Part shown: positions 2,187 to 63,538 of the stretch, piece by piece
How positions within the stretch are numbered: position 1 is the first letter of the stretch
Layout of the letters: each line of letters starts with the position of its first letter
NCBI GenBank assembly: GCA_016193335.1
Contig: JACPSK010000001.1
Location: 422,962-486,961 of the forward strand
Length of the DNA: 64,000 nucleotides
Reading direction: 5' to 3'
Origin: Candidatus Magasanikiibacteriota bacterium
GTDB lineage: Bacteria > Patescibacteriota > Patescibacteriia > Magasanikbacterales > UBA922
Made by a program: the position numbers and the translations under genes
Notes under the pieces: generated by a model
The model's database searches: none
What the model saw: only the letters and a program-made list of their open reading frames with translations
Told to the model about the DNA's origin: nothing

Positions 2187-3341
2187 ATGTCACTCCACAT
2201 ATACGAGCAGATACAAAAACAAATTGAGGGTAAAAAACATATTTTGATATGTTTTGACAAGAACAGCAAAGGCGACGCAATCGGAAGCGCCGCGGCTTTT
2301 GCGTCTTTTCTAAAACAAAAAAGCCAACGCTTTGATATTGTTTCGGCCGACTTTGCCTTGCCCAAAGAATACGAATTTTTAAAAGAGACCAAAAACATAC
2401 AAAACGCCCTAAGCAAAGCCAGAAAATGTATACTTTCCATTGACATAAAAAACACGGGCCTCAAAGAACTGAGCTATGATCTCTTGGAAAATAAACTCCG
2501 CATTTTTATTACTCCAAAGCAAGGCTCCATACATAAAGAACAGATCAGCACCGCGCAATCCGAATATGTATATGATCTCATCATTGTCCTCGACACCCCG
2601 GATCTTCTCTCGCTCGGGACGCTATACACGAACAATACCGATTTGTTTGATCGCACTCCCATCATCAATATAGATCACAAACAGTCCAACGAACATTTCG
2701 GCCACATCAATCTCGTGGACATAACCGCGAGCAGCACTGCCGAAATTGTGTTTGCCCTCCTTGGCCGCGTCAATGGAGAATACATAAACGCGGAAACGGC
2801 CACCGCCCTCCTCACCGGCATGATCGGGGGCACAAACAGTTTTAAGGCAGAAAATGTAAAAACCCAGGCCCTTTCAGCCGCAAGCGAACTGGTGCGTTTG
2901 GGAGCGGACAGAAACTATATCATCAAAAATTTGTACCGAACCAAATCCATAGCCACCTTCAAACTCTGGGGCTCGGTTTTGTCTCACCTGGAATACGACA
3001 AAAATGCAGGCCTTGTCTGGTCTCTCATCACCAGAGAAGACTTCGCGCGTTCCGGAGCTCAAGAATCGGATCTGCACGCCATCATCAAAGAGCTTATTTC
3101 AAACGCCCCTGAAGCAAAAGTAATCCTGCTTCTCCACGAACATCCGGGAAGCGCAGATGCAGGAGCGATACACGGCATCGTGGAAAGCAACGGATCTGCC
3201 GATGCTCTGGAACTTAGCAAACGCTACAAAGGATCAGGCTCTCGCCAAAGCGCTTCTTTCACTATCGAAGAAGGAAAAAACCTCAAAGAAACGGCGGACG
3301 AAGTCCTGGATTATATCCGATCCTTACTGAAAATGAGATAA
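2187..3341 (+). CDS. DHH/DHHA1 family phosphoesterase (NrnA-like); start probably ATG 2187, downstream of the promoter
   Basis: A DHH-like segment (NIDHKQSNEHFGHINLVD), a GGT motif and overall DHH-DHHA1 architecture. This is a family-level call only. Confidence 0.65.
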   Translation: MSLHIYEQIQKQIEGKKHILICFDKNSKGDAIGSAAAFASFLKQKSQRFDIVSADFALPKEYEFLKETKNIQNALSKARKCILSIDIKNTGLKELSYDLLENKLRIFITPKQGSIHKEQISTAQSEYVYDLIIVLDTPDLLSLGTLYTNNTDLFDRTPIINIDHKQSNEHFGHINLVDITASSTAEIVFALLGRVNGEYINAETATALLTGMIGGTNSFKAENVKTQALSAASELVRLGADRNYIIKNLYRTKSIATFKLWGSVLSHLEYDKNAGLVWSLITREDFARSGAQESDLHAIIKELISNAPEAKVILLLHEHPGSADAGAIHGIVESNGSADALELSKRYKGSGSRQSASFTIEEGKNLKETADEVLDYIRSLLKMR

Positions 3342-3404
3342 ACTCATAAGGAATTTTAATTTCTAATTTTTAATTTTTAGTTTTTAAACAATTTTTGATG
3401 GCTT

Positions 3405-3490
3405 ATTTTTAATTATCTAAACGAAATACCGCTATCTGAAAGATACCTTCGCAGACTTGATCATTAGAAATTAAGAGAATAGAAATTCAT
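3405..3490 (-). repeat. intergenic repeat family copy A (core attctcttaatttctaat...ggtatctttcagatagcggtatttcgttt), inverted relative to copies B and C
   Basis: The reverse complement of 3413-3487 aligns at ~85% with 9178-9263. The core is flanked by AT-rich aatttttaattt/aaattgtaaattaaaaatt tracts. Confidence 0.6.
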
Positions 3491-3520
3491 TAAAAATCAT
3501 AAATTTTAAATTAAAAATTG

Positions 3521-5098
3521 TTAAATCAAAGGTCTTCCGGTCATCTCTTTGGGCGCTTTTACTCCCAAAATAGAAAGCACAGTCGGGGCCACATCCGCGA
3601 GCATGCCCACCGGATGAAGCAAACTCAAATCTCCGTTCGGCGGATCTCCGGCAGGGCCGCTCTGTCCATGATAGGCAGAACCGACAATGAGGAGAGGCAC
3701 CGGATTGGTGCTGTGTTCTTTATCTTTCTCACCGGTTTGCAAATTGATTACTTCTTCCGCGTTTCCATGATCGGCCGTAATGATGAGCACACCACCCTTG
3801 GCCAAAATTTGTTCGGCAATCTGTCCCAGGGCCTTGTCAACGGCCTCGCATCCTTTAATGGTCGCGGCGAGATTTCCTGTATGGCCCACCATATCCGCGT
3901 TCGCGAAATTAAGCATAATCAGATCATAAGAATCTGAATCTATGGCTTTGAGTACCTGCTTGGCGATTTTCAAAGCCGACATTTCCGGTTCTTTGTCATA
4001 AGAAGATACTTTCGGAGAAGGAATAATTTTACGATCCTCACCTGGGAAAGGATCCTCAATCGTGCCATTTATGAAAAAGGTAATGTGCGCGTACTTTTCT
4101 GTTTCAGCTATATGAAATTGTTTCAAACCTTTTTTACTTATCACTTCGGCGAGACAATTCGTTACCACCACTGGCGGATATGCCACCAAAACCGGTATGT
4201 CTTTTTCGTATTCTGCCATGGTCACAAACAAAAAATCTTTTATGGTTTCCCTGTGAAATTTGGCAAAGCTCGGCAGGGCGAATGCCTCAGTAAGCTGGCG
4301 GGCTCGGTCTGGTCTGAAATTAAAAAAAATCGCCGCGTCGCCTTTTTCAATCCTCGCCACCGGCTCATCCGCTTTGCCCATGACAACCGGCACGAACTCT
4401 TCATCAAAAATTCCCTTGTCATAAGAAGCCTTTACCGCGTCTTCAGGGTCTTTGTAATATTCGTCAGAGATTCCTTCGGCCATGGCCCGATAGGCCTTTT
4501 CAATTCTATCCCAACGGTTATCTCTGTCCATGGCCCAGTATCTTCCTGAGACAGAAGCAATCTCGCCTACTTTTATTTTTTTCATTACTTTTTGAAGAGC
4601 TTTCACAAAATCAATTGCGCTCTTTTCTTGAGTGTCGCGACCGTCGAGTATGGCGTGGACAAAAACTTTTTTTATTTTCTGTTTTTTGGCAAATTCCAAA
4701 AGAGCGTATAGGTGATCTTGGGCAGCGTGCACATTCCCCGGACTCAGCAAACCTATAAAGTGTAACCGCGTTTTTTGTTCTCTTACATGTTCAGCAGCTC
4801 TTAAAAAATTTTCATTTGAAAAAAAAGATTTATCCGCGATGCTCTTATTTATTCTGGGAAAAGTTTGATAATACACGCGACCCGCGCCAATGTTCAGATG
4901 TCCGACTTCCGAGTTGCCCATTTCACCGAAAGAAAGCCCTACTTCATTTCCAGACGCGTAAAGAGTCATGGCCGGATATTCTGCCATAAATTTATCCACG
5001 TTGGGCGTGTTGGCTCTCGCGATTGCGTTGCCTTCATGATCAGGCGCTATGCCCCAACCGTCAAGAACCGCGAGAACCACTGGTTTAGGATGGTCCAT
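3521..5098 (-). CDS. gpmI: 2,3-bisphosphoglycerate-independent phosphoglycerate mutase
   Basis: MDHPKPVVLAVLDGWGIAPD..NSEVGHLNIGAGRV; full-length iPGM. The ORF could extend to 5122. Confidence 0.9.
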   Translation of the reverse strand: MDHPKPVVLAVLDGWGIAPDHEGNAIARANTPNVDKFMAEYPAMTLYASGNEVGLSFGEMGNSEVGHLNIGAGRVYYQTFPRINKSIADKSFFSNENFLRAAEHVREQKTRLHFIGLLSPGNVHAAQDHLYALLEFAKKQKIKKVFVHAILDGRDTQEKSAIDFVKALQKVMKKIKVGEIASVSGRYWAMDRDNRWDRIEKAYRAMAEGISDEYYKDPEDAVKASYDKGIFDEEFVPVVMGKADEPVARIEKGDAAIFFNFRPDRARQLTEAFALPSFAKFHRETIKDFLFVTMAEYEKDIPVLVAYPPVVVTNCLAEVISKKGLKQFHIAETEKYAHITFFINGTIEDPFPGEDRKIIPSPKVSSYDKEPEMSALKIAKQVLKAIDSDSYDLIMLNFANADMVGHTGNLAATIKGCEAVDKALGQIAEQILAKGGVLIITADHGNAEEVINLQTGEKDKEHSTNPVPLLIVGSAYHGQSGPAGDPPNGDLSLLHPVGMLADVAPTVLSILGVKAPKEMTGRPLI

Positions 5099-6855: not shown

Positions 6856-8112
6856 CTAAAATCCCAATTCATCCTCTATTTCCATCAGCCTATTATACTT
6901 TTCCACCCGCTCTGATCTCGAGAGCGAACCTGTTTTGATGAATTCGGCGTTCACGGCAACGGAAAGATCTGATATAAAGGTATCTGAAGTTTCTCCCGAA
7001 CGATGAGAGACTGAAATCGCGTATTTATGTTTCTGCGCCAGAGAAATCGCGTCAATCGTTTCGCTGAGTGAGCCTATTTGATTTACTTTTATAAGCACCG
7101 CGGTCGCCACATTCATTTCTATCGCTTTTTTGATGCGCTCGGTATTGGTAACGAGGAGGTCGTCACCAACGATGTGAATTTTCCCTTTAACCTGCTTGGT
7201 ACATTTCTGCCAAGCTTCCCAATCGTCTTCATCGAGCGGATCCTCGACAGAAATAATCGGATATTTTTTTATCCAAGTTTCTAGTATTGAAATGATATGG
7301 TCTGAATCGATAGCGGATTTCGCGTCGGCAAAATAATATTTCCCTTTGCGATGAAATTCACTCGCGGCCCAATCCATGGCTATCATTACTTGTTTCCCCG
7401 GCGCGTAGTCCGCTTTTCTTATCGCTTGGACAATATAACGCAGAGCTTGTTCATTATTTGTCAATTCAGGCGCAAATCCTCCCTCATCCCCCACGCCGGT
7501 CGCGAATCCTTTTGAGCGCAAAATACGGTGGAGAGCTTGGAACACCTCGGCCCCCATACGCACACGCTCAGAAAACCGGCGATTGATCGGCACAATCATG
7601 AATTCCTGAATCGAAAGCCCATTGTCCGCGTGCCGTCCGCCGTTCAAAATGTTCATGGTCGGGACCGGCATACGCCAACTCTTATACGAAAGGCCGAATG
7701 TTTGGCGAATGTGTTTGTACAAAGGCTGGCCTTTGCTCTCTGCGGCCGCTCTCGCGCAAGCAAGTGAAACGGACAAAATGGCGTTAGCGCCAAGTTTGCT
7801 TTTGTTTGGCGTTCCATCGAGCGCAAGCATGACCTTATCTATATCGCGCTGTTTTGAAGCGTCCACCCCCGCGAGCGCTTTCCTTATAAGGGTGTTTACA
7901 TTTTTTACGGCTTTCAAAACTCCCTTGCCATTGTAACGTCTCGCGCCGTCTCTCAGTTCTAAAGCTTCGTGCGTACCCGTAGAAGCTCCGCTCGGCACCG
8001 CCGCCTCCGCTTTACTGCCGTCCTGAAGGATAACCCATGTCCTCAGGCTGGGGTTGCCTCGTGAATCCAAAATTTCTCTGGCTATTATCTGTTTTATGCT
8101 TTGTGCAACCAT
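6856..8112 (-). CDS. eno: enolase
   Basis: MVAQSIKQIIAREILDSRGNPSLRT..SHRSGETSDTFISDLSVA; canonical enolase motifs. Confidence 0.95.
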   Translation of the reverse strand: MVAQSIKQIIAREILDSRGNPSLRTWVILQDGSKAEAAVPSGASTGTHEALELRDGARRYNGKGVLKAVKNVNTLIRKALAGVDASKQRDIDKVMLALDGTPNKSKLGANAILSVSLACARAAAESKGQPLYKHIRQTFGLSYKSWRMPVPTMNILNGGRHADNGLSIQEFMIVPINRRFSERVRMGAEVFQALHRILRSKGFATGVGDEGGFAPELTNNEQALRYIVQAIRKADYAPGKQVMIAMDWAASEFHRKGKYYFADAKSAIDSDHIISILETWIKKYPIISVEDPLDEDDWEAWQKCTKQVKGKIHIVGDDLLVTNTERIKKAIEMNVATAVLIKVNQIGSLSETIDAISLAQKHKYAISVSHRSGETSDTFISDLSVAVNAEFIKTGSLSRSERVEKYNRLMEIEDELGF

Positions 8113-8981: not shown

Positions 8982-9177
8982 ACAGTGAAAATTTATAATT
9001 TGTAATTTGTAATTTTTAATTTAAATGATAATTTGAAAATCTTTACAGTGGCATTATACCATACAAGAAAAAAACAAGAAATCCATCATTTGTCTCAAAC
9101 ATAATCATACCAATGCGAGAGGAACTAACATTTTAATTTTTAATTTATAATTTTTATCCAATTTTCAATCTTTAAAC

Positions 9178-9263
9178 AATTTCTATTCTCTTAATTTCTA
9201 ATAGCTGAGTCTGCTATAAGGTATCTTTCAGATAGCGGTATTTCGTTTGGATCATTAGAAATT
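9178..9263 (+). repeat. intergenic repeat family copy B
   Basis: aatttctattctcttaatttctaat…aaggtatctttcagatagcggtatttcgtttggatcattagaaatt, flanked by AT-rich tracts. Confidence 0.6.
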
Positions 9264-9294
9264 ATGTCATTACAAATTGTTTAAAAATTATAAA

Positions 9295-10491
9295 TTAACG
9301 CAAAGCTTCAATCCCCGGCAGTTTTTCGCCGGACAAAAACTCAAGCATCGCTCCTCCGCCCGTTGACACCAAATCAATATATTCTGTCATGCCCGCCATA
9401 TCCATACTTTGTAAAGTTTCACCACCGCCTATCACGCCATAGGCTTTACCTTTTGAACGGGAGGCAACGAGACGAGCTACGGCCAAAGTAGCCACATCAT
9501 AAGGCTTTTGTTCAAATACTCCCATGGCGCCGTTCCATACGAGAGTCTTGGCTTGTTTTATATAAGACGCGAAAAGACGAACGGTTTTCGGCCCCATATC
9601 AAAAATCGCTTCATTTTTTTTGCAGATCAGATGCGGCTTTTTCTCAATATCCACCACTCTAAAAGAACTGCCTCGCGGATTTCCCACCACCAGGTCCAGC
9701 GGCTTAATGACTTTTTTATTTTTGCCGTAAAGCATCGCCTTCCGCGCAAGGTCTTTCTGGACCAAAGAAGCTCCCACACCATAGCCGCGGGCGTATAAAT
9801 AGGTGTTTACCAAAGCTCCTCCGAGCAATATATTTGTTACCTGAGGCAAAAGATGTTTGATAACCGGAATTTTGGTCTCAAGTTTGGCTCCGCCCAACAC
9901 AAGCACAAAAGGTCTTTTTGGCCTTTTCATCACTTTTTCCAAGCCTCTTATTTCTTTTTCCAAAAGCAAACCGGCGTAAGACGGGAGAAAACGCGTGATT
10001 CCAAGCACCGAGGCCGCGGGACGATGAGCCACCGCAAAGCCGTCGAGCACAAATATGTCGGCCAGGCTTGCGAACAGCTCTGCCAATGACTTGTCATTTT
10101 TTTCTTCTCCAGAAGAAAAACGCGTATTTTCAAGCATGGCGATTTGAGAATCTTCCAGATGATTTATTTCAAAACGCACTTTATCCGCTCGCTTCTCAGA
10201 CCAGCTCCAATTTCCCGTATTTATATATTTCACGCCCTTGCCGAGCATAATGCCAAAATGTTCGGCCACCGGAGCAGTAGAAAATGATGGCACTATTTTG
10301 CCCCCCGGCCTGCCAATATGAGTAAGCAAAATAATCTTAGCTCCTTTTTCCATTAAATACTGAACTGTGGGTAAAGATGCTTGCAAACGAGAATGATCAA
10401 GCACTCGGTTCTTCAATAGAGGTACGTTAAAATCCACTCTCAGCAAAACGCGCTTTCCCTTCAATTTTTTTAAACTTTTGATGGATTTCAT
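9295..10491 (-). CDS. pgk: phosphoglycerate kinase
   Basis: VLLRVDFNVP…; full length. Confidence 0.95.
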   Translation of the reverse strand: MKSIKSLKKLKGKRVLLRVDFNVPLLKNRVLDHSRLQASLPTVQYLMEKGAKIILLTHIGRPGGKIVPSFSTAPVAEHFGIMLGKGVKYINTGNWSWSEKRADKVRFEINHLEDSQIAMLENTRFSSGEEKNDKSLAELFASLADIFVLDGFAVAHRPAASVLGITRFLPSYAGLLLEKEIRGLEKVMKRPKRPFVLVLGGAKLETKIPVIKHLLPQVTNILLGGALVNTYLYARGYGVGASLVQKDLARKAMLYGKNKKVIKPLDLVVGNPRGSSFRVVDIEKKPHLICKKNEAIFDMGPKTVRLFASYIKQAKTLVWNGAMGVFEQKPYDVATLAVARLVASRSKGKAYGVIGGGETLQSMDMAGMTEYIDLVSTGGGAMLEFLSGEKLPGIEALR

Positions 10492-11536: not shown

Positions 11537-11626
11537 AACCAGTATACCAAATCATGAATATATAATTCAACAACAGACAGACCGGGCGCAATAGATATTA
11601 CAATTTTTAATTTATGATTTTTAATC

Positions 11627-11702
11627 AATTTTTATTCTCTTAATTTCTAATGACTAAATCCGCACGGTATCTTTCGGACAAGGATATTTTGTTTAGAGGA
11701 TC
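11627..11702 (+). repeat. intergenic repeat family copy C (more diverged)
   Basis: aatttttattctcttaatttctaatgac…ggtatctttcgg…gatattttgttt, followed by aaaattgtaaattaaaaatt. Confidence 0.5.
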
Positions 11703-11750
11703 AAAATTGTAAATTAAAAATTAAAAAAGAACGGGTTTACCCGTTCTTTT

Positions 11751-12398
11751 TTATTTCAGTTGTTCGGCGACTTCGGAGACAAAATCGCATGCCTGTTTTT
11801 CTATACCCTCGCCCAGCTCATAACGCACAAAGCGACGAATACTTATTTTCTCCCCTATTTCGACCGTTTTTTCTTGCAACAATTGTTCTATGGTTTTGTC
11901 TTCATCTTTTACGAATTTTTGTTCCAGAAGACAAATCTCCTGATACCATTTTGCCAGTTTTCCTTCAAGAATTTTTTCCAACATTTCCGCCGGTTTGCCT
12001 TCATTTTTGAGTTGTTCGCGATACACGTCTTTTTCTTTTTCGATTTCTTCGGCAGATACTTCTTCTCGAGAAAGATATTTTGGAGAAGACGCGGCTATAT
12101 GCATGGCAATGTCCTGAACCAAGGCGCTGAATTGTTCATTGCGGGCCACAAAATCCGTTTCGCTATTTACTTCCACGAGCACGCCTATTTTGCCGCCGGC
12201 ATGAATATAACTCGCCACTTTGCCTTCGGCCGCTATTTTGCCCGCGCGCTTGGCAGCTTTGGCTATGCCCTTTTTCCTAAGGATTTCTACCGCCTTTTCA
12301 AAATGGCCGTTTGCCTCGTCCAAAGCCTTTTTGCAATCGAGCATCCCTGCTCCGGTTTGAGTTCTAAGTCTGGAAATATCTGAAACCTGTGTAGACAT
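11751..12398 (-). CDS. tsf: elongation factor Ts
   Basis: SRLRTQTGAGMLDCKKAL…; the start is taken at MSTQVSDISRL. Confidence 0.9.
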   Translation of the reverse strand: MSTQVSDISRLRTQTGAGMLDCKKALDEANGHFEKAVEILRKKGIAKAAKRAGKIAAEGKVASYIHAGGKIGVLVEVNSETDFVARNEQFSALVQDIAMHIAASSPKYLSREEVSAEEIEKEKDVYREQLKNEGKPAEMLEKILEGKLAKWYQEICLLEQKFVKDEDKTIEQLLQEKTVEIGEKISIRRFVRYELGEGIEKQACDFVSEVAEQLK

Positions 12399-13352: not shown

Positions 13353-13520
13353 AGAAAATATTTCCTTTATCCTCCTCCATCCTGCCCGCGCGCGTCTTGG
13401 CGCTTTGGGAGGAAATAAAATGGATAGAGTGAGGGATATAAATTAAGTATGCGCAAAGTGTATAGGATACTTAAAATTTTGTCAATGCTAATGTATCAAA
13501 ACTTGAATCTTAAAATTTCA

Positions 13521-13613
13521 CAAAAGAACTGTTTCAGGAGACTGCGGAGCGCGATCTGGCGCGAGCCTGAGCGAAAATTCAGCAGAATTTTACGCGTGCT
13601 CCTGAAACAGTTA
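13521..13613. repeat. perfect 14-bp inverted repeat (aactgtttcaggag / ctcctgaaacagtt) enclosing a 65-nt GC-rich loop
   Basis: Read directly from the sequence. It lies upstream of rpsB on the minus strand, adjacent to the GC island. Confidence 0.5.
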
Positions 13614-13662
13614 TTTTGTGAAATAAAATTTTAAAATAAATAAAAACACTTAGAAATGAAGA

Positions 13663-13726: not shown

Positions 13727-15322
13727 TCACTTCTTTTTGTTCTTACCACCACCCTTCTTCGGGTGGTCCTCCTTGGCCGGCGCCTCGGGCGCGGGGACCT
13801 GGTCCGAGGCCGTGGGCACCTCGACCTGATCGGCCGCGGCCTCCGCCACCTCGTCGGGGACGGACGGCATGGTCTCCGCGGCATCGGCCTCGGCCGTGGG
13901 CTCCGTGGCCAGGACGACCTCGGTGGCCGGCTCCGGCGCGACGGCCATGCCCTGGTCGGCCTTGGCCACCGCCTCGTCCTCGACGACCGACGTGGGCTCC
14001 GCCACAAGGTCAGCAGACGCGACCGGCACCGCCTTCGGCTCCCGCTTGGGCTCGGGGAGGCCGAGCTTCCGGCGGACCATGCGGTCCAGCTCGGTCGAGC
14101 TCATACCCCCCGCGGCCTTACGGAAGGCCTCGGCCACCGGTTCGACCCGATCATCCGCGGGGTTCTCCTGGTGGTGCTTGGCCTGGCGCTCGGCCGCGGC
14201 CTCCTTGAGGAGGCGCGTGACATCGAGGTTCCCGAGATCCGCGTCCTCGGGGAGAGCATCGACGATGCGCCTCGCCGACTTGTTGGCGGACTTGACGGTG
14301 GGCACGCCGCCCATCCTCACCAGCCGCTCCCCGATCTCATCCACGAGTCGCTTCTTCGCCATGCGACGCGTGCGCTTGGCCTCGTCGGCCTCGGCCAGCG
14401 CCAGGAGCTCGGCACGCTCGGCCTCGATCTCCTCGCGGCTCCGCGGCCGGGGCATGCTGAAGAGCATGGCCAGCTCGGGGAGCTTGCGGGCCTCCCGAGC
14501 GATATTCATCTTCTGCGGGTCATCGGCGCTGATCTCTCGGATCTGTTCCTTGGTCATCACGCCGTGAGCCCGGAAGACCCTCTCCAGCTTGTCGAGCAGA
14601 TTCTGGAGCGTCCGAACCCGCTCCCGGTAGAGGCCGACGGCCTCGCCGGTGAGGTTCGGCTGGTCCTTCCGGAGCATGCCCTGGAGCTTGCGCATGTGCA
14701 TCTCCGTGAGGATGACGAAACGCATACCCGCGGACCACTTGGCGTTCCGCCAGACCAAGTCCGGGAAGATCCCGGCCAGCTCGGTCCGCAGGGGGTGCCC
14801 CACCTCGATGGGCCCGCGCTCCGGCGGCGGGGCGACCACGCGGGCCGTCTGTCCGCCCTCGTCCGCCAGCATGGCCGTGCCGGCCTTCGAGTGGCCGTTG
14901 CCACCGACCTTGCCCTTGGGGGTCTCGACGGCGGGCGGCGGGGCCACGGGCGCGGGCTCGGCGGGCTCCTCGTCGTCCTCGAACAGGAAGGCCATGGCCG
15001 CGGCCTGGGCCGCCTTGGCCTCGGCGATCTGCGCCTCGACGCCGCGCTTCCACTTCGTGACCATGAGGCCGCGACCCTCGGGGGTCGCGAGGAGATCCTC
15101 GGCCTTCATCGCAGCCAGACCGCGGAGGATCCGCTCGGACTTGGCCTTCGCCGCCTCGTCCTTGGCCACGGCCTGTTCGGCCTTGGCCTTCGTCGTCTTC
15201 TCCTCGATCAGCTGGACCGCGGTGGCCAGCAGCTCCTCGTTCGTGGGCTCACGGACGGTCGTGCCGTCCGACGTGAAGAAACCCGACTCGGATGCCACAA
15301 CCGCCTGCGTCTCATCGCTCAT
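13727..15322 (-). CDS. hypothetical acidic Ala/Glu/Lys/Pro-rich protein (~533 aa) in a high-GC island; no family recognised
   Basis: Continuous minus-strand ORF with G/C at nearly every third codon position. The start is taken at MSDETQAVV, and the tail ends KKGGGKNKKK. The flanks are AT-rich. Confidence 0.55.
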   Translation of the reverse strand: MSDETQAVVASESGFFTSDGTTVREPTNEELLATAVQLIEEKTTKAKAEQAVAKDEAAKAKSERILRGLAAMKAEDLLATPEGRGLMVTKWKRGVEAQIAEAKAAQAAAMAFLFEDDEEPAEPAPVAPPPAVETPKGKVGGNGHSKAGTAMLADEGGQTARVVAPPPERGPIEVGHPLRTELAGIFPDLVWRNAKWSAGMRFVILTEMHMRKLQGMLRKDQPNLTGEAVGLYRERVRTLQNLLDKLERVFRAHGVMTKEQIREISADDPQKMNIAREARKLPELAMLFSMPRPRSREEIEAERAELLALAEADEAKRTRRMAKKRLVDEIGERLVRMGGVPTVKSANKSARRIVDALPEDADLGNLDVTRLLKEAAAERQAKHHQENPADDRVEPVAEAFRKAAGGMSSTELDRMVRRKLGLPEPKREPKAVPVASADLVAEPTSVVEDEAVAKADQGMAVAPEPATEVVLATEPTAEADAAETMPSVPDEVAEAAADQVEVPTASDQVPAPEAPAKEDHPKKGGGKNKKK

Positions 15323-15497
15323 GGTCGCAATCTCCAATCGAACGCCGATGCGTTCGATATCAAAAAAATTAAGAACACACTCAAAAGCCTCGCAAACCCA
15401 AGGTACGACCCCAAGAAAGCGTGACTCGAGCCAGAGACTATAGCGAATGATAATGAATTTGTCAAGTATAGGCCTCAACAGAGCGAAAAAATCGCCC

Positions 15498-27511: not shown

Positions 27512-27678
27512 ACAGGGCCTTGTGGGTCATGGATTCATCACCAAGCAGATCTTGCATGAGCAGGGCCTTAAAAAGGTCCTGTTTTTTGTACAAGTCTATC
27601 CCCCGGCTTGGCTTTCCGCCTTTTGCCCTTTTTGATATAATCCAGCCGCTCTCGCACCCATATTTTAACAATTTTTAT

Positions 27679-28695
27679 ATGCTCAAAAACAAACCGATCT
27701 GCGCGATGTACAACAGCCTGACTCCGGATCTTTCGGGATATATCAAAAAAAAACTTCCCGCCGTGTCTTTCCAGGTTTTTAGCGAGGCCATAAACAAAAA
27801 AAACATTTTGAGACGAACCGAAATTTTGGGCATTTTCGTAGACTCCAAAATAGACAAAGCGGTATTTTCACAAATGCCGTCTCTGCGTTTTATCGCAACT
27901 TTTTCTACCGGTTTTGACCACATAGACCTCAAAGAAGCCCAAAAACGCGGTGTGATTGTCTCCAATGTGCCCAAGTACGGCGAACAAACCGTGGCCCAAC
28001 ATGCCCTGGCTCTCATGCTTGCACTTTCGAGAAAACTTTTTCAATCCGTAAAGAGGGTGAAAGAAGGAGTTTATGATTTCCACGGTCTGAGAGGTTTTGA
28101 CATGGAGGGAAAAACAATAGGCATTATAGGCACGGGAAATATAGGCATTCAACTCATCAAGATGCTCCGAGGGTTTGACCTGCGCGTGCTTGCTTATGAT
28201 GTAAAAAAAAACATGAAAGCCGCGAAAGAATACAAATTCGCTTATACGTCTTTTGAAAAACTCTTATCCGAATCCGACATCATCTCTTTTCATGCTCCCT
28301 TGCTTGAATCAACATATCATTTGATACACAAACAAAATATCAAAAAACTTAAAAAGGGGGTCATTATCATAAACACGGCTCGAGGCGGGCTTATAGACCC
28401 GGAAGCTCTGCTATTGGGATTGGAGCAAGGGAAAATCGCGGGAGCGGGCCTTGATGTTTTGGAAGAAGAAGACGCTTTGCGCGATGCCGAACGACTTATA
28501 TACAGCGAGCATAAAGACAGACTCATCCGCACCAGTCTTATGAACAATCTACTTATAGACCATCCGAACACTATTGTAACGCCTCACAATGCTTTCAACA
28601 GCCATGAGTCTGTGAAACGTATTCTCGATACCTCGGCAGAAAATATATGCGCCTTTATGAAAGGCAAGCCCCAGAATCAAGTTTTGGTGTCTTAG
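27679..28695 (+). CDS. D-isomer-specific 2-hydroxyacid dehydrogenase (D-lactate dehydrogenase-like)
   Basis: GIIGTGNIG (NAD-binding) and a catalytic His (TPHNAF). The start is uncertain (27679 or 27706). It is inserted between rplK and rplA. Confidence 0.8.
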   Translation: MLKNKPICAMYNSLTPDLSGYIKKKLPAVSFQVFSEAINKKNILRRTEILGIFVDSKIDKAVFSQMPSLRFIATFSTGFDHIDLKEAQKRGVIVSNVPKYGEQTVAQHALALMLALSRKLFQSVKRVKEGVYDFHGLRGFDMEGKTIGIIGTGNIGIQLIKMLRGFDLRVLAYDVKKNMKAAKEYKFAYTSFEKLLSESDIISFHAPLLESTYHLIHKQNIKKLKKGVIIINTARGGLIDPEALLLGLEQGKIAGAGLDVLEEEDALRDAERLIYSEHKDRLIRTSLMNNLLIDHPNTIVTPHNAFNSHESVKRILDTSAENICAFMKGKPQNQVLVS

Positions 28696-43046: not shown

Positions 43047-43130
43047 ACCAGGCCGGCTTGTCCAGCCATCACATCGGACTTAATTAAAAATTGTAAATTA
43101 AAAATTAAAAATTATTAATCATTATCTTCT

Positions 43131-44747
43131 ATGAAAGAACAAAGTACCTACACGCATATCGCCTCTTACGAGCCCAAGGATCCGAGCGAAGTAAAACGAG
43201 TGGTGCTCCTCTACTCCGGCGGACTCGATACTTCGGTAATGCTCAAATGGATTCAAGACAGATACCACGCGGAAGTGATAGCTCTTTGCTTGGACATTGG
43301 CCAGCTTGCCGATGACCTGGAATTTATAAAACAAAAGGCGCTTAAACTTGGCGCGATCAAAGCCATTGTGCTCGATTGCAAAGACGAATTCGCTGACAAA
43401 TATATTTCCCGGGCTATAAAAGCCAACGCCTGCTACCAGGGAGACTACCACCTCAGCACGCCCATCGGCAGACCTCTTCTCGCCAAAAAAGCGGTGCAAA
43501 TCGCTTTTGAAGAAAAAGCCGACACGATAGCCCACGGCTGTACGGGCAAAGGCAATGATCAGGTCCGCTTGGAAGGCACCGCCGTTACGCTCAATCCGGA
43601 CATCAAAATTATCGCCCCTGTCCGCGAATGGGGCATGGGGAGAGACGAAGAAATAGCTTACGCGGAAAAACACGGTATTCCCATAAGCCATAGCGCAAGC
43701 AAGCCCTACAGCCATGATGACAATATGTGGGGCGTAACCAGCGAAGGCGGAGAAATAGAAAATCCGGAACTCATCCCGCCCCTCGAAAATATTCTTGAAA
43801 TAAGCACTCCGCCCAAAAAAGCTCCGGATCAGGAAGAATTGGTACATCTCGAATTTGTAAAGGGCCTACCAGTTTCTCTCAATGGAGAACAAATGAAACT
43901 GAGCGAATTGGTCATACGGCTCAATCGCTTGGCCGGCAAACATGGGGTGGGAATCGTGCACCATCTGGAAGACAGGGTGGTGGGTTTGAAAGTTCGAGGC
44001 TTGTACGAACAGCCCGCGGCTCATGTCATTATCAAAGCACATAAAGAACTGGAAAAATACGTCTGTACCCGGCATGAAAACAAATTCAAAGAATTGGTAG
44101 ACCAAGAATGGGCATACCTGTGCTACGGAGCGCTTTGGTACGAACCGCTCATGAAAAATCTTTCCGGTTTTATAGACACGGTGAATGAAAAAGTAAATGG
44201 CACGGTAACCCTAAGACTGTACAAAGGAAATTGCGACGTGGTGGCTCTCAAAACTCCTGATGCCCTGTTTGACGAAAAACTGGCCACCTTCAATAAAAAC
44301 GATTTGTTCAATCAAAATGCCTCACCCGGTTTCATTGAGCTGTGGACTTTGCAAATGAAGATGGCTCGACAGACCAAAAAAAATATCCTGTTTACGGTGA
44401 GCGGAGCAAAAAAACAAGAATTACTTCAAAGTATGCGAGACTTGCAAAAATTAAATTGCATATTGTACGCCACCAAACATACCAGCGAATTTATGGAACA
44501 GCATGACATCGTCAACAAACTGGTGCACAAAATTTCAACCCAAGAAAGGCCGAACATTGAAACGCTCATGCGAGAACGCCGTTTTGACCTTATCATCAAT
44601 ATACCTTCTCCAGAAGGAAACGGAGAACAAAAAACCGATGGGGAAAGAATGCGAGAACTGGCCGTGGAGCACAATGTCCCTCTCGTCACTGACGTGGATG
44701 TGGCCAAAAGCATGGTGGAAAAACTCAAACAAATATACGAACGCTAA
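43131..44747 (+). CDS. argG: argininosuccinate synthase fused to a C-terminal MGS-like (CarB C-terminal type) domain
   Basis: N-terminal part: VLLYSGGLDTSV…AHGCTGKGNDQVR (ArgG). The C-terminal ~130 aa (ILFTVSGAKKQELLQ…LYATKHTSEF…DLIINIPS…) resembles a methylglyoxal-synthase-like domain. Confidence 0.8.
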   Translation: MKEQSTYTHIASYEPKDPSEVKRVVLLYSGGLDTSVMLKWIQDRYHAEVIALCLDIGQLADDLEFIKQKALKLGAIKAIVLDCKDEFADKYISRAIKANACYQGDYHLSTPIGRPLLAKKAVQIAFEEKADTIAHGCTGKGNDQVRLEGTAVTLNPDIKIIAPVREWGMGRDEEIAYAEKHGIPISHSASKPYSHDDNMWGVTSEGGEIENPELIPPLENILEISTPPKKAPDQEELVHLEFVKGLPVSLNGEQMKLSELVIRLNRLAGKHGVGIVHHLEDRVVGLKVRGLYEQPAAHVIIKAHKELEKYVCTRHENKFKELVDQEWAYLCYGALWYEPLMKNLSGFIDTVNEKVNGTVTLRLYKGNCDVVALKTPDALFDEKLATFNKNDLFNQNASPGFIELWTLQMKMARQTKKNILFTVSGAKKQELLQSMRDLQKLNCILYATKHTSEFMEQHDIVNKLVHKISTQERPNIETLMRERRFDLIINIPSPEGNGEQKTDGERMRELAVEHNVPLVTDVDVAKSMVEKLKQIYER

Positions 44748-44765: not shown

Positions 44766-45689
44766 ATGAGTAAACCGAATATTTCGGTATCTTTCGCAGG
44801 CATAACACTAAGGAACCCAACTATCTTGGCTTCCGGCATTTTGGGAGTGACAAAATCTTCCCTAAAGTACGTAATAAAACACGGAGCCGGAGCCTGCGTG
44901 ATCAAATCAATAAGCCTTGAACCGAGAAGCGGCCATAGGGCACCCAATATGCATCCCGTGGAAGGAGGATTTTTGAACGCGGTCGGTTATTCCAATCCCG
45001 GCTTGGAAGAAGCAAAACGAGAATTTTTACATCTATCAGACCTGCGAGCTCCGGTGATAGCGAGCATCATAGGAAAAGACGCTGAAGAATTTGCCAAAAA
45101 TGCTGAACTTTTTTTGAGCGATGAATTCGCAGCCGTGGAAGCTGTACTGTCTTGCCCACACACACCCGGATACGGGACTCTCGCAGGCCAAGGCAGTCCG
45201 GAAGCTACTGAAAAAATTACCAAAGCGATTAGAGCAAAAACCAAACTGCCTTTATTTATAAAATTATCCCCTCAGAGCGAACCAATCTCAGAAGTCGCGA
45301 AAGCGGCGGAAGCCGGCGGAGCGGATGGCATCACGGCGATCAACACCGCGGGCCCGGGAATGTATATAGACATAAAAACACGAGCGTCTGTGTTACATTT
45401 TGGCATGGGAGGACTTTCAGGACCGGCGTTGAGGCCCATTGCCGTGCGATGCGTTTATGATATATACAAGTCAGTAAAAATTCCCATAATAGGAGTAGGC
45501 GGCATCCAATCCGGAAGAGATGCCATAGAAATGATGATGGCAGGGGCGCAGGCCGTACAGATCGGAACCGGAATTTATTACAAAGGCATTGACGTGTTTA
45601 AGCAAGTTACGGACGAGATAAAAATATTTATGGAAGAAGAGGGCATAAAAAAACTTTCAGAAATAGTCGGGGCAGCACATAAAAAATAG
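44766..45689 (+). CDS. pyrD: dihydroorotate dehydrogenase catalytic subunit (class 1B)
   Basis: LRNPTILASG…; an FMN-binding TIM barrel. Confidence 0.9.
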   Translation: MSKPNISVSFAGITLRNPTILASGILGVTKSSLKYVIKHGAGACVIKSISLEPRSGHRAPNMHPVEGGFLNAVGYSNPGLEEAKREFLHLSDLRAPVIASIIGKDAEEFAKNAELFLSDEFAAVEAVLSCPHTPGYGTLAGQGSPEATEKITKAIRAKTKLPLFIKLSPQSEPISEVAKAAEAGGADGITAINTAGPGMYIDIKTRASVLHFGMGGLSGPALRPIAVRCVYDIYKSVKIPIIGVGGIQSGRDAIEMMMAGAQAVQIGTGIYYKGIDVFKQVTDEIKIFMEEEGIKKLSEIVGAAHKK

Positions 45690-45710
45690 AATAGCTTTCT
45701 GACGCGGAGT

Positions 45711-45822
45711 TGCCTACTTATCCCTTTATAACATATTTTTATGAATCCTGCGGAGTCAGCTCGCTTCGCTCTCGCATTCATCCTTAGGCTTTCTAAAATA
45801 TGTTATAAAGGATAGGTTCCCG
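45711..45822. repeat. ~105-bp palindromic element, copy 1 (terminal inverted repeats atccctttataacatatttt / aaaatatgttataaaggat)
   Basis: Homologous to 62121-62232 along its whole length, including the cgcttcgctctcgca core. Confidence 0.6.
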
Positions 45823-45850
45823 GATTTATATAATGCATAATATCCGGACT

Positions 45851-45949
45851 GAAGCTTCGTACATAATGTTTTTTACAATGGCAACTGTTTGAGTCCGGCT
45901 TCGGCCGGGCGAGTTTTGCCATTGTAAAAAACATTATGTACGAAGCTTC
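45851..45949. repeat. perfect 34-bp inverted repeat flanking a 31-nt loop that contains a ccggc-UUCG-gccgg hairpin
   Basis: The arms are 45851-45884 and 45916-45949, exact reverse complements. The right arm contains the first ATG of the pyrK ORF. Confidence 0.6.
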
Positions 45950-45974
45950 TCCAACAAAATCCCCTATAAATTAT

Positions 45975-46805
45975 ATGAAAGACATACTGCCTGATGTGCA
46001 AAAAACCCTGCCCATCAAAAATATCACGAACGAAAATCCGCATGTAAAAACCTTTTGGTTTGAACATACTCTGCACTCCAAACCGGGTCAATTTGTGATG
46101 CTCTGGATTCCCGGCCTGGACCAAAAACCCTTTTCAATTTCTTATGATTATGGAGACAAATTCGGTTTGTCCATATTTTCGGTGGGTCCTCTGAGCTCTG
46201 TATTGTTTAATACCACAAAGGTTGGGGACAAGATTGGAATCACCGGCCCTTATGGAAAATCATTTTCAACCGGAAAGCACAAACACTACATTGCCGTTGG
46301 CGGAGGATACGGGTCGGGGCCTCTCGGATTTCTGGCTGAAATTTTGGAAAACACGGGCGTCACCCTTGACTTCTGCGTAGGGGCCAAAAACAAGGATTTA
46401 CTTCTTTTTGAAGAGCGAGCAGCAAGACTTTCTCATGTTAGCGTGCATGTGGCGACAGACGACGGTTCCAAAGGACACAAAGGATACGTTACAGAATTGC
46501 TTGAAGATATATTAAAAAAAAGAAAAGATAAAAAAGACATCATCGTTTCGGCTTGCGGCCCTGAGCTTATGGAAAAAACGGTTCTTGATCTTGCGAACGC
46601 GTATGACGTCAACTGTGAGCTGAGCATCGAACGTTATATGAAATGCGGTTTCGGAATCTGTGGACAATGCTCGGTGGATCCACTTGGTATTCCTTTATGC
46701 ACAGAAGGCCCGGTGCTTTCAAAAGATACGGCGAACAAGCTGACTGAATTCGGAGCTTATCACCGGAATAAATGCGGGGGAAAAGAATATTACAAACCAT
46801 CATAA
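45975..46805 (+). CDS. pyrK: dihydroorotate dehydrogenase electron-transfer subunit
   Basis: An FAD/NAD-binding domain and a C-terminal 2Fe-2S cluster motif (CGFGICGQCSVD). The start is taken at MKDILPD, outside the hairpin. Confidence 0.85.
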   Translation: MKDILPDVQKTLPIKNITNENPHVKTFWFEHTLHSKPGQFVMLWIPGLDQKPFSISYDYGDKFGLSIFSVGPLSSVLFNTTKVGDKIGITGPYGKSFSTGKHKHYIAVGGGYGSGPLGFLAEILENTGVTLDFCVGAKNKDLLLFEERAARLSHVSVHVATDDGSKGHKGYVTELLEDILKKRKDKKDIIVSACGPELMEKTVLDLANAYDVNCELSIERYMKCGFGICGQCSVDPLGIPLCTEGPVLSKDTANKLTEFGAYHRNKCGGKEYYKPS

Positions 46806-51370: not shown

Positions 51371-51624
51371 TCTACGGCGGTTCTTTAAGAATTTTTGTGA
51401 CTGCGACTTCTGCCCCAGAATCTCAATAATCGGATGCACATGGAGCTATCTTCAAACAAAAACAACTCTTTCGGGGGGAAATTTTAAAATCGAGGAATAC
51501 AGACGTATGGGAACACTATTCGGAAATATCTGCTACTACCGCCTTAACCCAAATAATTTTGAACGATCCTAGAGATTAAAGATTTCAAATTGTTTAAAAA
51601 TTGTAAATTAAAAAAATTTAAATT

Positions 51625-52191
51625 ATGTCTACTTTCCCACACGAAGGACTCCCCGTACAGCCACTACAAAACGAAGACCAAAAACATCCCCAAAGACGTC
51701 ATCTGAGAGCTGTAACCGATCCGGATGAAACAGAAACTCAAAGCAGGGAAGCACTGCTCAGACAGAGGCGAGAGCTTCTCGAGAGAAAAGCGCAAATAGA
51801 ACGCGATTTTGCTAGCCAGATAGCGGCACTGAACGAAGAGTTAAAAACAGTAAACGACTCCATATTGGGCATTTCGGATACGCATAATTCGGGAGTCCGC
51901 AATCGCAAACGCGAAAAGGCACTTGAGGCATACGCAAGAAGCCCTGAATCTCTCATTGAGCATTGTATAATAACAATCACACTGAGACGCACGGACATAG
52001 AACGTTACCAAAGTATGCTCGCTGGAGAACGAAAACGCCAAATAAGCGAAAAAGACAGGCAAGCTTTGACAGATGAAAAAATCGAAGCAAACATCAAGAC
52101 GCTCCAAGAAGATATAGATAGAGCCTGGGACCGAATTAAAGAAATAAGCTCAAACATAAATGAATCCGAAAGAGAACAAAAGGTCGCCTGA
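51625..52191 (+). CDS. hypothetical coiled-coil protein
   Basis: ORF rich in heptad-like E/K/R. It is preceded by an aaattgtaaattaaaaa motif. Confidence 0.4.
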   Translation: MSTFPHEGLPVQPLQNEDQKHPQRRHLRAVTDPDETETQSREALLRQRRELLERKAQIERDFASQIAALNEELKTVNDSILGISDTHNSGVRNRKREKALEAYARSPESLIEHCIITITLRRTDIERYQSMLAGERKRQISEKDRQALTDEKIEANIKTLQEDIDRAWDRIKEISSNINESEREQKVA

Positions 52192-52666: not shown

Positions 52667-52735
52667 TTGCCGTCTCCTTTAGTGTTCCGAATATAGGACT
52701 CTACTGTAATAGGGACGACTTGTCAAGTAGGGGGG

Positions 52736-52939
52736 TACGGATAGCACGGATCTACAGATCAACAGATAATACAAACAGTGCATTATTGTGGGGTGTGATA
52801 CAAAATAGATAACTTTGATCTGGGAATCCGTAGATCAGTAGATCCGTGCTATTTTACAGGTCAACGAGTAATTCAAATGGTGGATTATGTAGAATGTGAT
52901 TTGGAAATCCGTAGATCAGTAGATCCGTACTATCCGTAC
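52736..52939. repeat. three copies of a ~26-32-bp GATC-rich motif (…atccgtagatcagtagatccgtRctat…): one inverted (52736-52761) and two direct (52826-52857, 52905-52939)
   Basis: Read directly, in a 310-bp non-coding region between divergent genes. Confidence 0.55.
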
Positions 52940-52998: not shown

Positions 52999-53754
52999 AT
53001 GGGTGAAACAAGCAGATTCGCCGCGGAACCCGGGCTGAGAAAGCCAAGCGAACCGAAGCATGATGATCATGCGATTAGTCCTGGCGAAGAAGAGTGGTTC
53101 GAAACGCGCACAGACCTTCCCTATCCCACTGACCCTCAAGAAACACGGACCATGGTAGATTGGGATGGCACCGACATCGGGAGCCCCAAAGAGAGCGGTC
53201 AACTGCGCGACGACAGACCACGATCAAAGCTAGAACGGAGAAAACGATACAGCCAAGAAGAGGCTGATGTTTTGGTTGGCGACTTGGCTTCTGTGGCCGC
53301 GGAGTTAAAACAAGAACCGCAAGCCGCTTCTGACACAAAACCAAGAGCCGGGCAAAATAAGGACGTTTCTTCAACTAGCCTCAAAGAGGTCGGCATTAAA
53401 CTCGAAGTCCTCGGAAACAATCTCAATCTTCTGAAGAGACTCCAATCCATGCCGGATGATAACGCTGAAAAACAATTACACCTGCGGCAGATGGGCTTTC
53501 CCAACAATTTAGAACTTGAGACACGAATTGATCAGGTGCAAAAACAAATCATGGAAGCGCAGGAACACAGAAATTTTCTTGAAATTGCTCCTCCCACTGA
53601 TTACGAAAAGGAACATGGCAATACTGGCTTCGACCAGGCGGCATGGTTCGCCGATGAAGATGAAGCGCCACGAGTAGTCGAACGCATACTGCGTGAAAAA
53701 GGAGAACAACAACTAGAGCCGGAAGACTTTGATGAGATGAATGAAAGACTCTAA
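52999..53754 (+). CDS. hypothetical acidic protein
   Basis: ORF only. Confidence 0.4.
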   Translation: MGETSRFAAEPGLRKPSEPKHDDHAISPGEEEWFETRTDLPYPTDPQETRTMVDWDGTDIGSPKESGQLRDDRPRSKLERRKRYSQEEADVLVGDLASVAAELKQEPQAASDTKPRAGQNKDVSSTSLKEVGIKLEVLGNNLNLLKRLQSMPDDNAEKQLHLRQMGFPNNLELETRIDQVQKQIMEAQEHRNFLEIAPPTDYEKEHGNTGFDQAAWFADEDEAPRVVERILREKGEQQLEPEDFDEMNERL

Positions 53755-61968: not shown

Positions 61969-62073
61969 AATATAAATATGATTACAGACAAATATAGATG
62001 GGTCCCCATAATAACTGTGCGTCTATAATGTTGACCAAGTATAGGGAATGAAACGATACTTGTCAATCTTGAA

Positions 62074-62105
62074 GAGAAAAACCGGCTTTCTGGCCGGTTT
62101 TTCTC
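62074..62105 (-). terminator. intrinsic terminator downstream of rpsA
   Basis: gagaaaaaccgg-ctttct-ggccggtttttctc. Confidence 0.55.
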
Positions 62106-62120
62106 TAGTGATTGTGGAAA

Positions 62121-62232
62121 TGTGAAAGCCTATCCCTTCATAACATATTTTAAAAATCCTACGGAAGTCATCCCGCTTCGCTCTCGCACTCGTCCTCCGG
62201 CTTTTTAAAATATGTTATGAAGGGATAGGCGT
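62121..62232. repeat. ~105-bp palindromic element, copy 2 (perfect 24-bp terminal inverted repeat gcctatcccttcataacatatttt / aaaatatgttatgaagggataggc)
   Basis: Aligned by eye to copy 1; the core cgcttcgctctcgca is conserved. Confidence 0.6.
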
Positions 62233-62269: not shown

Positions 62270-63538
62270 TCAGACTGCGGCTTCTACACCATCCTCTGCT
62301 GTCTTCTCCATAGAAGGAAGAATTTCATCTGGAGGGTTCAGAGACTCTCCGACCGTTTCTGTCCGCTGTTTCTTTGAAACTTCCGCGTCTGGAGTCTCTC
62401 CTATGGATTCGTCTTTCCTCCGAGCTCTTCCTTTAACACCTTCTAACTTCAAACCCAAACGATGTTCAGCAGGCTCTATGGACAAAATCTCAAATTTTCT
62501 CTTTTCACCTACAGAAAATTGGCTCAAAAAACCTTGGCTATCTCCAATCGGTTTATCCGAGAGATCTGATATATGAGCCAGCCCATGTATCTCTTCGTCA
62601 AGACGCACCATAAGACCAAAGGCTTCCACTTTGTGAATTTCACCCTCTATAATCTGTCCGACCTTGTATCGCTCTTTCGCCTGTTTCCACGGATCGTCTA
62701 TCAGACGCTTCAAAGACAAATAAATTTTTGACTTGTTCAAATCTATGATCTGGGCTTTTACTTTATCTCCTATTTTCAAAATATCTTTGGGGTGATCTAT
62801 GCGCTGCCAAACGATCTCAGAGATATGAATCAAGCCTTCCAAACCATCGCCAAACTTCATAAACGCACCGAAAGGAGTAAGGGCCCCTATGGCGCCTTCT
62901 ACCACATCCCCGATTTTGTAAGATTCAAGGATACTCTTTTGTTCATCCTCCCACACGGCCTTTTCCGAGAGGATCAATTTTCCTTCTTCCGGGTTGGCGT
63001 CTAGGATTTTTACTTTGATGGCCGTATCGACAAATTGTTTGAGATGATCCAAAATTCTGTTCTTGTCTCCTCCCGGGACTCTTGGATAATGTTCAGGGCT
63101 GAGCTGAGAAACAGGCAAAAAACCGTTTACCGCATCCACCTGCAAGAGTAAGCCGCCTTTATTGGCTTGAATCACGCGCGCGGAAACAATTTTGGATTCT
63201 TTTTTGGATTCAAGCATCCTATCCCATACCAGTTTGTGTCCTGCTATGCGGAAAGACAGCTCCATTTCTCCGTTTTCGTTTTCTTCTTCTACAACGGTTG
63301 CTTCCACTTGATCCCCCACTTTAACCTCGGAAAACTCTTTAGACTCATTAAACAACTCTTCTCCCCGCACGACACCTATAATCATGCCATTTATATCCAC
63401 TCGAACCTCGCCCTTATCTATGGAAATAACCACGCCTTTTACCAAGTCACCTACCAGGGGAATCTTGGAAAAATAATCTTTAAGTAGTTCCCCAAAATCT
63501 TGAGGATTGGGGACTTTGGCGGCTGAATCGTCTGACAT
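62270..63538 (-). CDS. rpsA: 30S ribosomal protein S1 (four S1 domains, short form)
   Basis: Repeated S1 OB-fold motifs (GxVxG…). The start is taken at MSDDSAAK. Confidence 0.8.
   Translation of the reverse strand: MSDDSAAKVPNPQDFGELLKDYFSKIPLVGDLVKGVVISIDKGEVRVDINGMIIGVVRGEELFNESKEFSEVKVGDQVEATVVEEENENGEMELSFRIAGHKLVWDRMLESKKESKIVSARVIQANKGGLLLQVDAVNGFLPVSQLSPEHYPRVPGGDKNRILDHLKQFVDTAIKVKILDANPEEGKLILSEKAVWEDEQKSILESYKIGDVVEGAIGALTPFGAFMKFGDGLEGLIHISEIVWQRIDHPKDILKIGDKVKAQIIDLNKSKIYLSLKRLIDDPWKQAKERYKVGQIIEGEIHKVEAFGLMVRLDEEIHGLAHISDLSDKPIGDSQGFLSQFSVGEKRKFEILSIEPAEHRLGLKLEGVKGRARRKDESIGETPDAEVSKKQRTETVGESLNPPDEILPSMEKTAEDGVEAAV

Follow-up and report, generated by a model that had tools for sequence, protein, structure and literature searches.

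A ~103-bp palindromic repeat at two intergenic sites of a Magasanikbacteria genome is probably a MITE-like mobile element

One Candidatus Magasanikbacteria genome carries the same ~103-bp palindrome at two places, between the pyrimidine-biosynthesis genes pyrD and pyrK and between the genes for an S1-domain protein and FtsH, which raises the question of whether the repeat is an RNA kept for its fold, a binding site or a piece of mobile DNA. Genomes of Candidate Phyla Radiation (CPR) bacteria are tiny and thought to be poor in mobile DNA, and small mobile repeats have hardly been described in them. A full-text literature search combining MITEs and CPR returned no relevant paper, and a 2024 review of MITEs makes no mention of CPR bacteria (PMC10969869). 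The window, i.e. the whole 64-kb stretch of DNA that was analysed, comes from a metagenome-assembled genome of the Patescibacteria/CPR whose proteins include MBI2989958.1 and MBI2989973.1 on a contig of 686,675 bp; the same strain is found in GCA_964404105.1, 100% identical over 13.3 kb.

The sequence-only reading had placed two copies at 45711-45822 and 62121-62232 with a 15-mer common to their cores, and both copies proved real, with slightly revised coordinates.

45716-45817, + strand: copy 1, 102 nt; left arm ACTTATCCCTTTATAACATATTTT, right arm without one G, core with CTGCGGAG and CGCTTCGCTCTCGCA
62128-62230, + strand: copy 2, 103 nt; perfect 29-bp arms GCCTATCCCTTCATAACATATTTTAAAAA, GC-rich core

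The copies are 16.4 kb apart, each in intergenic DNA, and their global alignment yielded 86 identical positions among 101 aligned (85%) with three single-base gap columns, while a repeat scan reported them as a two-copy family through an ungapped repeat of 80% identity (45719-45811 and 62131-62223). In the window, an nhmmer profile built from both scored each at E ~1e-33. The copies are similar up to the very ends of the inverted repeats and no further, and the palindrome of copy 1 extends from 45712 if a 4-nt insertion is allowed. The shared 15-mer is CGCTTCGCTCTCGCA, whose exact matches are confined to the two copies; a 21-mer of the arm was also found in these two only, with no chance matches expected from shuffles.

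The terminal inverted repeats are AT-rich (28% GC) and enclose a GC-rich core (55-64%) of 45-55 nt, and because this core is not palindromic the element has polarity. The arms of copy 2 span 32 nt at 97% complementarity with a perfect run of 29, in keeping with the perfect stem reported earlier, and the single-base bulge described in copy 1 was borne out as well, the ~24-bp arms of that copy having one T/G mismatch and a bulge caused by the G missing from the right arm (AAGGATA versus AAGGGATA). Either strand is predicted to fold into a single long stem-loop, with energies for the two strands of -50.4 and -53.1 kcal/mol in copy 2 (z -9.6 and -8.3) and of -33.8 and -31.5 kcal/mol in copy 1. All six reading frames of the element contain stop codons, and concatenated six-frame peptides of both copies had no match at E <= 1 among 5.8 billion proteins. 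Searches of Rfam 15 gave zero matches at gathering thresholds, the permissive mode returning only generic plant miRNA hairpin models at 16-34 bits versus cut-offs of 100 bits.

Of the 23 pairs in the terminal helix, 19 are identical in both copies, two have changed on one side only, both giving G-U on the + strand, and two have changed on both sides. One of the latter, U-A to C-G, is the T-to-C change of the left arm matched by A-to-G in the right that the sequence-only reading had pointed out, and the other is a second double change at the outermost pair, A-U in copy 1 and G-C in copy 2. A rough simulation put the chance that two right-arm substitutions mirror left-arm ones at P ~0.003, and since such mirroring is improbable by chance, the substitutions show, as judged from the two sequences, that the arms co-evolve. 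Co-evolving arms would follow from selection on an RNA fold, from repair or gene conversion within a DNA hairpin, or from two slightly different masters, with homogenisation of DNA-hairpin arms or descent from two master copies explaining them equally well; the paired change therefore supports a hairpin without pointing to RNA in particular. Thus, of the earlier argument that compensatory change implies selection on a folded RNA or DNA hairpin, the co-evolution of the arms holds, but the step to RNA was too strong in view of the equally good DNA causes, of the opposite orientation of the host genes at the two loci, and of a covariation control in which 102 of 500 shuffles scored as well, two sequences giving such a control no power.

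Both loci were then compared with their counterparts in related genomes, the flanking genes named earlier (pyrD and a 34-bp hairpin at copy 1, S1 protein and FtsH at copy 2) being in agreement with Pfam. On the + strand, the order at copy 1 is argG with an MGS-like domain, pyrD (44766-45689), copy 1, the 34-bp hairpin, an intact gene for a pyrK-type subunit with its most likely start at 45977, and a phosphoribosyltransferase gene (Pfam). The first of these, an argininosuccinate synthase gene (43131-44747, +) with the MGS-like domain at the C-terminal end of its product, is itself a member of this pyrimidine gene cluster. The pyrD-pyrK spacing is 287 nt here; in the Logan contig of the closest relative (L029, pyrD 90% identical) pyrD (875-1789) and pyrK (1786-2613) overlap by 4 nt (ATGA), and in a second relative (L030, pyrD 77% identical) the spacer is 21 nt. 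The sequence shared with L029 breaks off after ...CAT (45680) and continues from ATATGAA (45975), both junctions being read by eye, and the DNA in between contains more than the element.

45681-45974, + strand: extra block of ~294 bp absent from L029, holding copy 1, a small CCGGAT/ATCCGG hairpin and the 34-bp hairpin
45851-45949, no strand assigned: perfect 34-bp hairpin with a 31-nt loop and an apical CCGGC-TTCG-GCCGG, found by the inverted-repeat scan

The final two codons of pyrD and its stop come from the extra block, and the 34-bp hairpin, although sharing the block with copy 1, falls outside the repeat family of the element.

At copy 2, the order on the - strand is the S1-domain protein gene, copy 2, a terminator-like hairpin, a promoter-like site and ftsH (start 61968), with copy 2 placed between the S1 stop codon (62270-62272) and the terminator-like hairpin of the S1 gene.

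62080-62107, - strand: terminator-like hairpin of the S1 gene, AAAACCGGC..GCCGGTTTT followed by a T-run, read directly and not called by the consensus scan
62038-62066, - strand: promoter-like site of ftsH, TTGACA-17-TATACT (11/12), found by the consensus scan, downstream of the terminator
62114-62124, + strand: left member of a direct repeat, GTGGAAATGTG, a candidate target-site duplication separated from copy 2 by AAA
62231-62241, + strand: right member of the direct repeat, GTCGAAATGTG, directly abutting copy 2

The order S1, ftsH, a 328-aa gene, T2SSE ... ThrRS is conserved in the relative L051 (S1 76% identical), which has an equivalent terminator; its S1-ftsH spacer consists of 126 nt, i.e. 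stop, 21 nt, terminator, TTGACA/TATAAT promoter and ftsH, as against 301 nt here. A further relative, L036 (77% identical), has a different palindromic element of 147 nt in the same spacer, and the spacers are not alignable. The sequence-only reading had seen no obvious target-site duplication, which is right for copy 1, whose flanks give at best a 7/9 direct-repeat match (shuffle p = 0.32), but not quite for copy 2, where the direct repeat matches at 10 of 11 positions (shuffle p 0.001-0.0025) with a 3-nt offset on the left. With the element, AAA and one repeat removed, ~46 nt remain between the S1 stop and the terminator, and if the 11-bp duplication is true, the empty site of copy 2 would have been GTGGAAATGTG joined directly to TTGTTCCC.

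Taken together, we regard the element as probably a non-autonomous, MITE-like mobile DNA element of ~103 bp, belonging to a family restricted to this Magasanikbacteria lineage that looks like one not described before. It is short (102 and 103 nt, within the <500 bp of MITEs) and non-coding, its ends are defined by terminal inverted repeats of 29 bp in copy 2 and 24 bp plus one bulge in copy 1, and the equivalent sites of related genomes (L029, L030 and L051) are empty, with approximate junctions; because these relatives are only 76-90% identical in protein, the exact pre-insertion sequences are not reconstructable. In size, arm length and intergenic position, in the AT-richness of its arms and in the high stability of its fold, it agrees with what is described for prokaryotic MITEs (PMC10969869). 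A short progenitor would have been copied into at least two intergenic sites, presumably by a transposase acting in trans on the inverted repeats and encoded elsewhere in the genome or now lost, one insertion falling between the translationally coupled pyrD and pyrK and the other between the S1 stop and its terminator. Both copies would now be fixed, probably as passengers, and would be co-transcribed with their host genes as a long stem-loop whichever strand is read, and this structure may, as an incidental effect, influence how the mRNA is processed or how stable it is, in the manner of Correia, ERIC and RUP elements. Complementarity of the arms would persist through correction of hairpin mismatches or selection against them.

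Further copies, a parent element and mobility genes were sought at several scales. The nhmmer profile detected no credible third copy in the window, its one marginal match (6918-6984) being rejected for lying inside the enolase gene, and none was present in the 77.5 kb available for this strain, i.e. the window with 7.8 kb on its left (L047) and 5.7 kb on its right (L041). A covariance model built from both copies found only those two in 116 kb (window, 13.5 kb of additional same-strain sequence and 38 kb from relatives). Scans for exact arms through 185,579 species genomes (596 Gb), JGI metagenomes and IMG/VR gave, on inspection by eye and by script, chance single-arm matches only, none accompanied by the core or a second arm; as the scans require an exact 19-20-mer, they would not detect diverged copies. 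A blastn search of copy 2 against plasmids and phages gave nothing. An autonomous parent would be an ORF bounded by GCCTATCCCTTCATAACATATTTT in inverted orientation, and no cognate insertion sequence or transposase with matching ends emerged from the window or from the arm scans of genome, metagenome and viral collections. For accepted bacterial MITEs the cognate autonomous element is often missing. The recognisable genes of the window are housekeeping genes, about a dozen ORFs have no Pfam match, and no transposase, integrase, Y1/RAYT enzyme or reverse transcriptase was detected by Pfam among the window ORFs. In the Logan contigs carrying this strain (~8 samples), both copies are unchanged without presence/absence polymorphism, and an exact FtsH look-up for polymorphism among samples returned no record. 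These contigs, assembled at k=31, all break at the same place, inside the hairpins of the element and the neighbouring 34-bp hairpin, because inverted repeats disrupt assembly at this k.

Such an element might also have spread as a selfish palindrome without a classical cut-and-paste DDE transposase, through a single-strand hairpin intermediate of the IS200/IS605 or RAYT kind or through recombination, which we consider unlikely. Homogenised arms are as expected of a hairpin intermediate, the window has no transposase, the direct repeats are inconsistent between copies 1 and 2, and small-genome relatives carry many unrelated long hairpins; both copies also point the same way along the chromosome, on a single replichore where the GC skew is monotonic, but for two copies this has a 50% chance. 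However, the ends of REP and IS200/605 elements consist of short imperfect hairpins in subterminal position, marked by conserved tetranucleotides, rather than of a single 100-nt foldback, no Y1/RAYT gene was seen in the window, and the 10/11 flanking repeat of copy 2 resembles the footprint of a staggered cut.

A structured RNA under selection for its fold, either a hairpin stabilising or processing mRNA in cis or a small RNA, duplicated or recruited at two loci, appears rather unlikely to us. Each strand has a very stable fold, and in both copies each of the 34 predicted pairs is a standard one, the two double-sided changes being accompanied by several one-sided changes that preserve pairing as G-U, and the improbability of mirrored substitutions counts here as well. 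Both copies also lie in probably transcribed DNA, one in an intercistronic spacer and one in a 3'UTR upstream of the terminator, and of the two strands at each locus, the one presumed to be transcribed has the slightly better fold. Nevertheless, both copies are on the + strand while the host genes are on + at copy 1 and on - at copy 2, so that the copies face opposite ways relative to local transcription, the asymmetric core is read as complementary sequences, and the two loci cannot yield the same RNA from it. Neither a promoter nor a terminator of the element's own was found, Rfam offers no match, and the covariation control is powerless at n = 2 with 19 of the 23 stem pairs invariant. Moreover, relatives in which these genes are retained lack the element at the corresponding sites, so it does not belong to the conserved regulatory make-up of these operons.

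It is highly improbable that the two loci carry duplicates of a site for protein binding or recombination, for instance an operator pair, an att site or an attC-like site: the arms are long and perfectly symmetric and contain ATAAC and GTTAT, which by direct reading faintly resemble attC R''/R' boxes, but these do not fit RYYYAAC/GTTRRRY, no integrase, cassette array or regulator is nearby, the host loci are functionally unrelated (pyrimidine synthesis versus S1/FtsH), and relatives lack the element at the same loci. Readings as attC, retron, CRISPR or omega-RNA were rejected since partner genes and defining motifs are lacking.

Among known elements, prokaryotic MITEs (PMC10969869, PMC3184786) share with the present one a length <500 bp, inverted repeats of up to ~30 bp with AT-rich arms, a non-coding, intergenic nature, a transcript predicted to fold into a stable stem-loop, a flanking direct repeat (at one copy here) and absence from the equivalent sites of relatives; they differ in that the present element has so far shown two copies and a clear direct repeat at one of them only, and has no known parent insertion sequence. 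RUP and Correia are the closest counterparts in architecture and the Rickettsia palindromic elements the closest in genomic setting. RUP (107 bp, pneumococcus) and Correia/CREE/nemis (~105-155 bp with 26-bp inverted repeats, Neisseria) approach the element in size and arm length and likewise insert in intergenic or intercistronic DNA, including within operons, but form families of tens to hundreds of copies, as against two seen here. No sequence similarity between their termini and the element is known. RUP and Correia duplicate TA, whereas the candidate duplication of the element is ~8-11 bp; a TA duplication was considered, with TA at both ends, and rejected, since each copy has complementary trinucleotides just outside it (GCC/GGC and ACT/GGT) and the TA is thus better read as part of the arm. 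Co-transcribed RUP/Correia hairpins can undergo RNase III cleavage or alter mRNA stability (PMC10969869), and a comparable effect on mRNA would likely be a side-effect of the present element.

The Rickettsia palindromic elements are likewise palindromes of ~100-150 bp found in a reduced genome; a lineage has several families unrelated to one another, no transposase has been identified for them, and their insertion into essential loci is tolerated. They have no sequence relationship to the element and often lie in frame inside protein-coding genes, whereas both copies here are intergenic, though the block around copy 1 rewrote the end of pyrD. REP/BIME sequences resemble the element as repeated extragenic palindromes in transcribed intergenic DNA, but REPs are imperfect GC-rich palindromes of 20-40 nt with a conserved 5' tetranucleotide, present in hundreds of copies and clusters of alternating orientation together with a RAYT gene, none of which is seen in the window. 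Where the sequence-only reading had left the choice between a MITE-like and a REP/BIME-type repeat, the empty sites of relatives and the direct repeat of copy 2 speak for the former, and the latter was rejected on account of the 100-nt foldback, the 24-29-bp arms, two isolated, unclustered + copies and no RAYT gene in the window by Pfam.

The related CPR genomes have long-hairpin intergenic elements of their own (L036:2065-2211; L051:8177-8310 and 488-573; L053:19977-20057) with arms of 25-34 nt and 88-100% complementarity, whose sequences are unrelated to the element, that of L053 being of the TGTCATTCCCGCGAAGGCGGGAATCC type. Unrelated long-hairpin elements in each related CPR genome are as expected for lineage-specific mobile families. 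Within the window, 13515-13624 forms a 110-nt hairpin with 26-nt arms (96% complementary) and a GC-rich core, which has CTGCGGAG just inside the left arm as in copy 1. This octamer occurs four times in 116 kb, three of these within long-hairpin elements that are otherwise unrelated (45748 in copy 1, 13542 in the 13515-13624 hairpin, and L036:2156) and the fourth in gyrA (L041:4113), for a post hoc binomial P of ~3e-6; copy 2 has CTACGGAAG where copy 1 has CTGCGGAG, and TCGC is repeated in several hairpin cores. Beyond short matches of 9-16 nt, Smith-Waterman comparisons of the element with the other hairpins were not significant against shuffles. The sharing of CTGCGGAG could reflect a common core module of CPR hairpin elements or could be coincidence. 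As a wider conjecture that we hold to be quite improbable, the element, 13515-13624, L036:2065-2211 and perhaps 45851-45949 and L051:8177-8310 would form one Patescibacteria-specific superfamily with interchangeable AT-rich arms and a shared GC-rich core (CTGCGGAG plus repeated TCGC), this module being recognised by a common host or mobile factor or acting as an RNA motif, and its members being able to invade even translationally coupled essential operons.

Several other features were noted on the way. A second, unrelated intergenic repeat family of ~150-180 nt is present at 3340-3545 (-), 9125-9305 (+) and 11590-11760 (+), while 43060-43140 and 51565-51630 hold partial copies. Its well-conserved core, AATTTCTATTCTCTTAATTTCTAATG...AAGGTATCTTTCAGATAGCGGTATTTCGTTTAGAT, is framed by AT-rich inverted flanks; the family is located between genes for glycolysis and EF-Ts and has no Rfam match. 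In 52735-52939, upstream of the ORF 52999-53754, ATCCGTAGATCAGTAGATCCGT(G/A)CTAT occurs three times, once inverted and twice direct, 81 nt apart, which could be an operator-like or iteron-like array. A 583-aa ORF (13727-15478, -) without Pfam match is located in a 60%-GC stretch of a 44%-GC genome and contains many GGCCTTGGCC-type repeats. A D-2-hydroxyacid dehydrogenase gene (27520-28695, +) lies between the genes for ribosomal proteins L11 and L1, which are normally adjacent, and the gyrA of L053 contains an intein.

For the biology of this genome, the MITE-like reading means that such an element is tolerated inside a pyrimidine-biosynthesis operon, where a 4-nt gene overlap has become a 287-nt hairpin-rich spacer and the end of pyrD has been rewritten, and that the 3'UTR of the S1 gene accommodates a second copy. 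Hairpins that break k=31 Logan assemblies are also relevant to the fragmentation of CPR genome assemblies. Beyond these points the element is of an ordinary kind, and its value is mainly as a record of MITE-like insertions within essential operons of a CPR genome.
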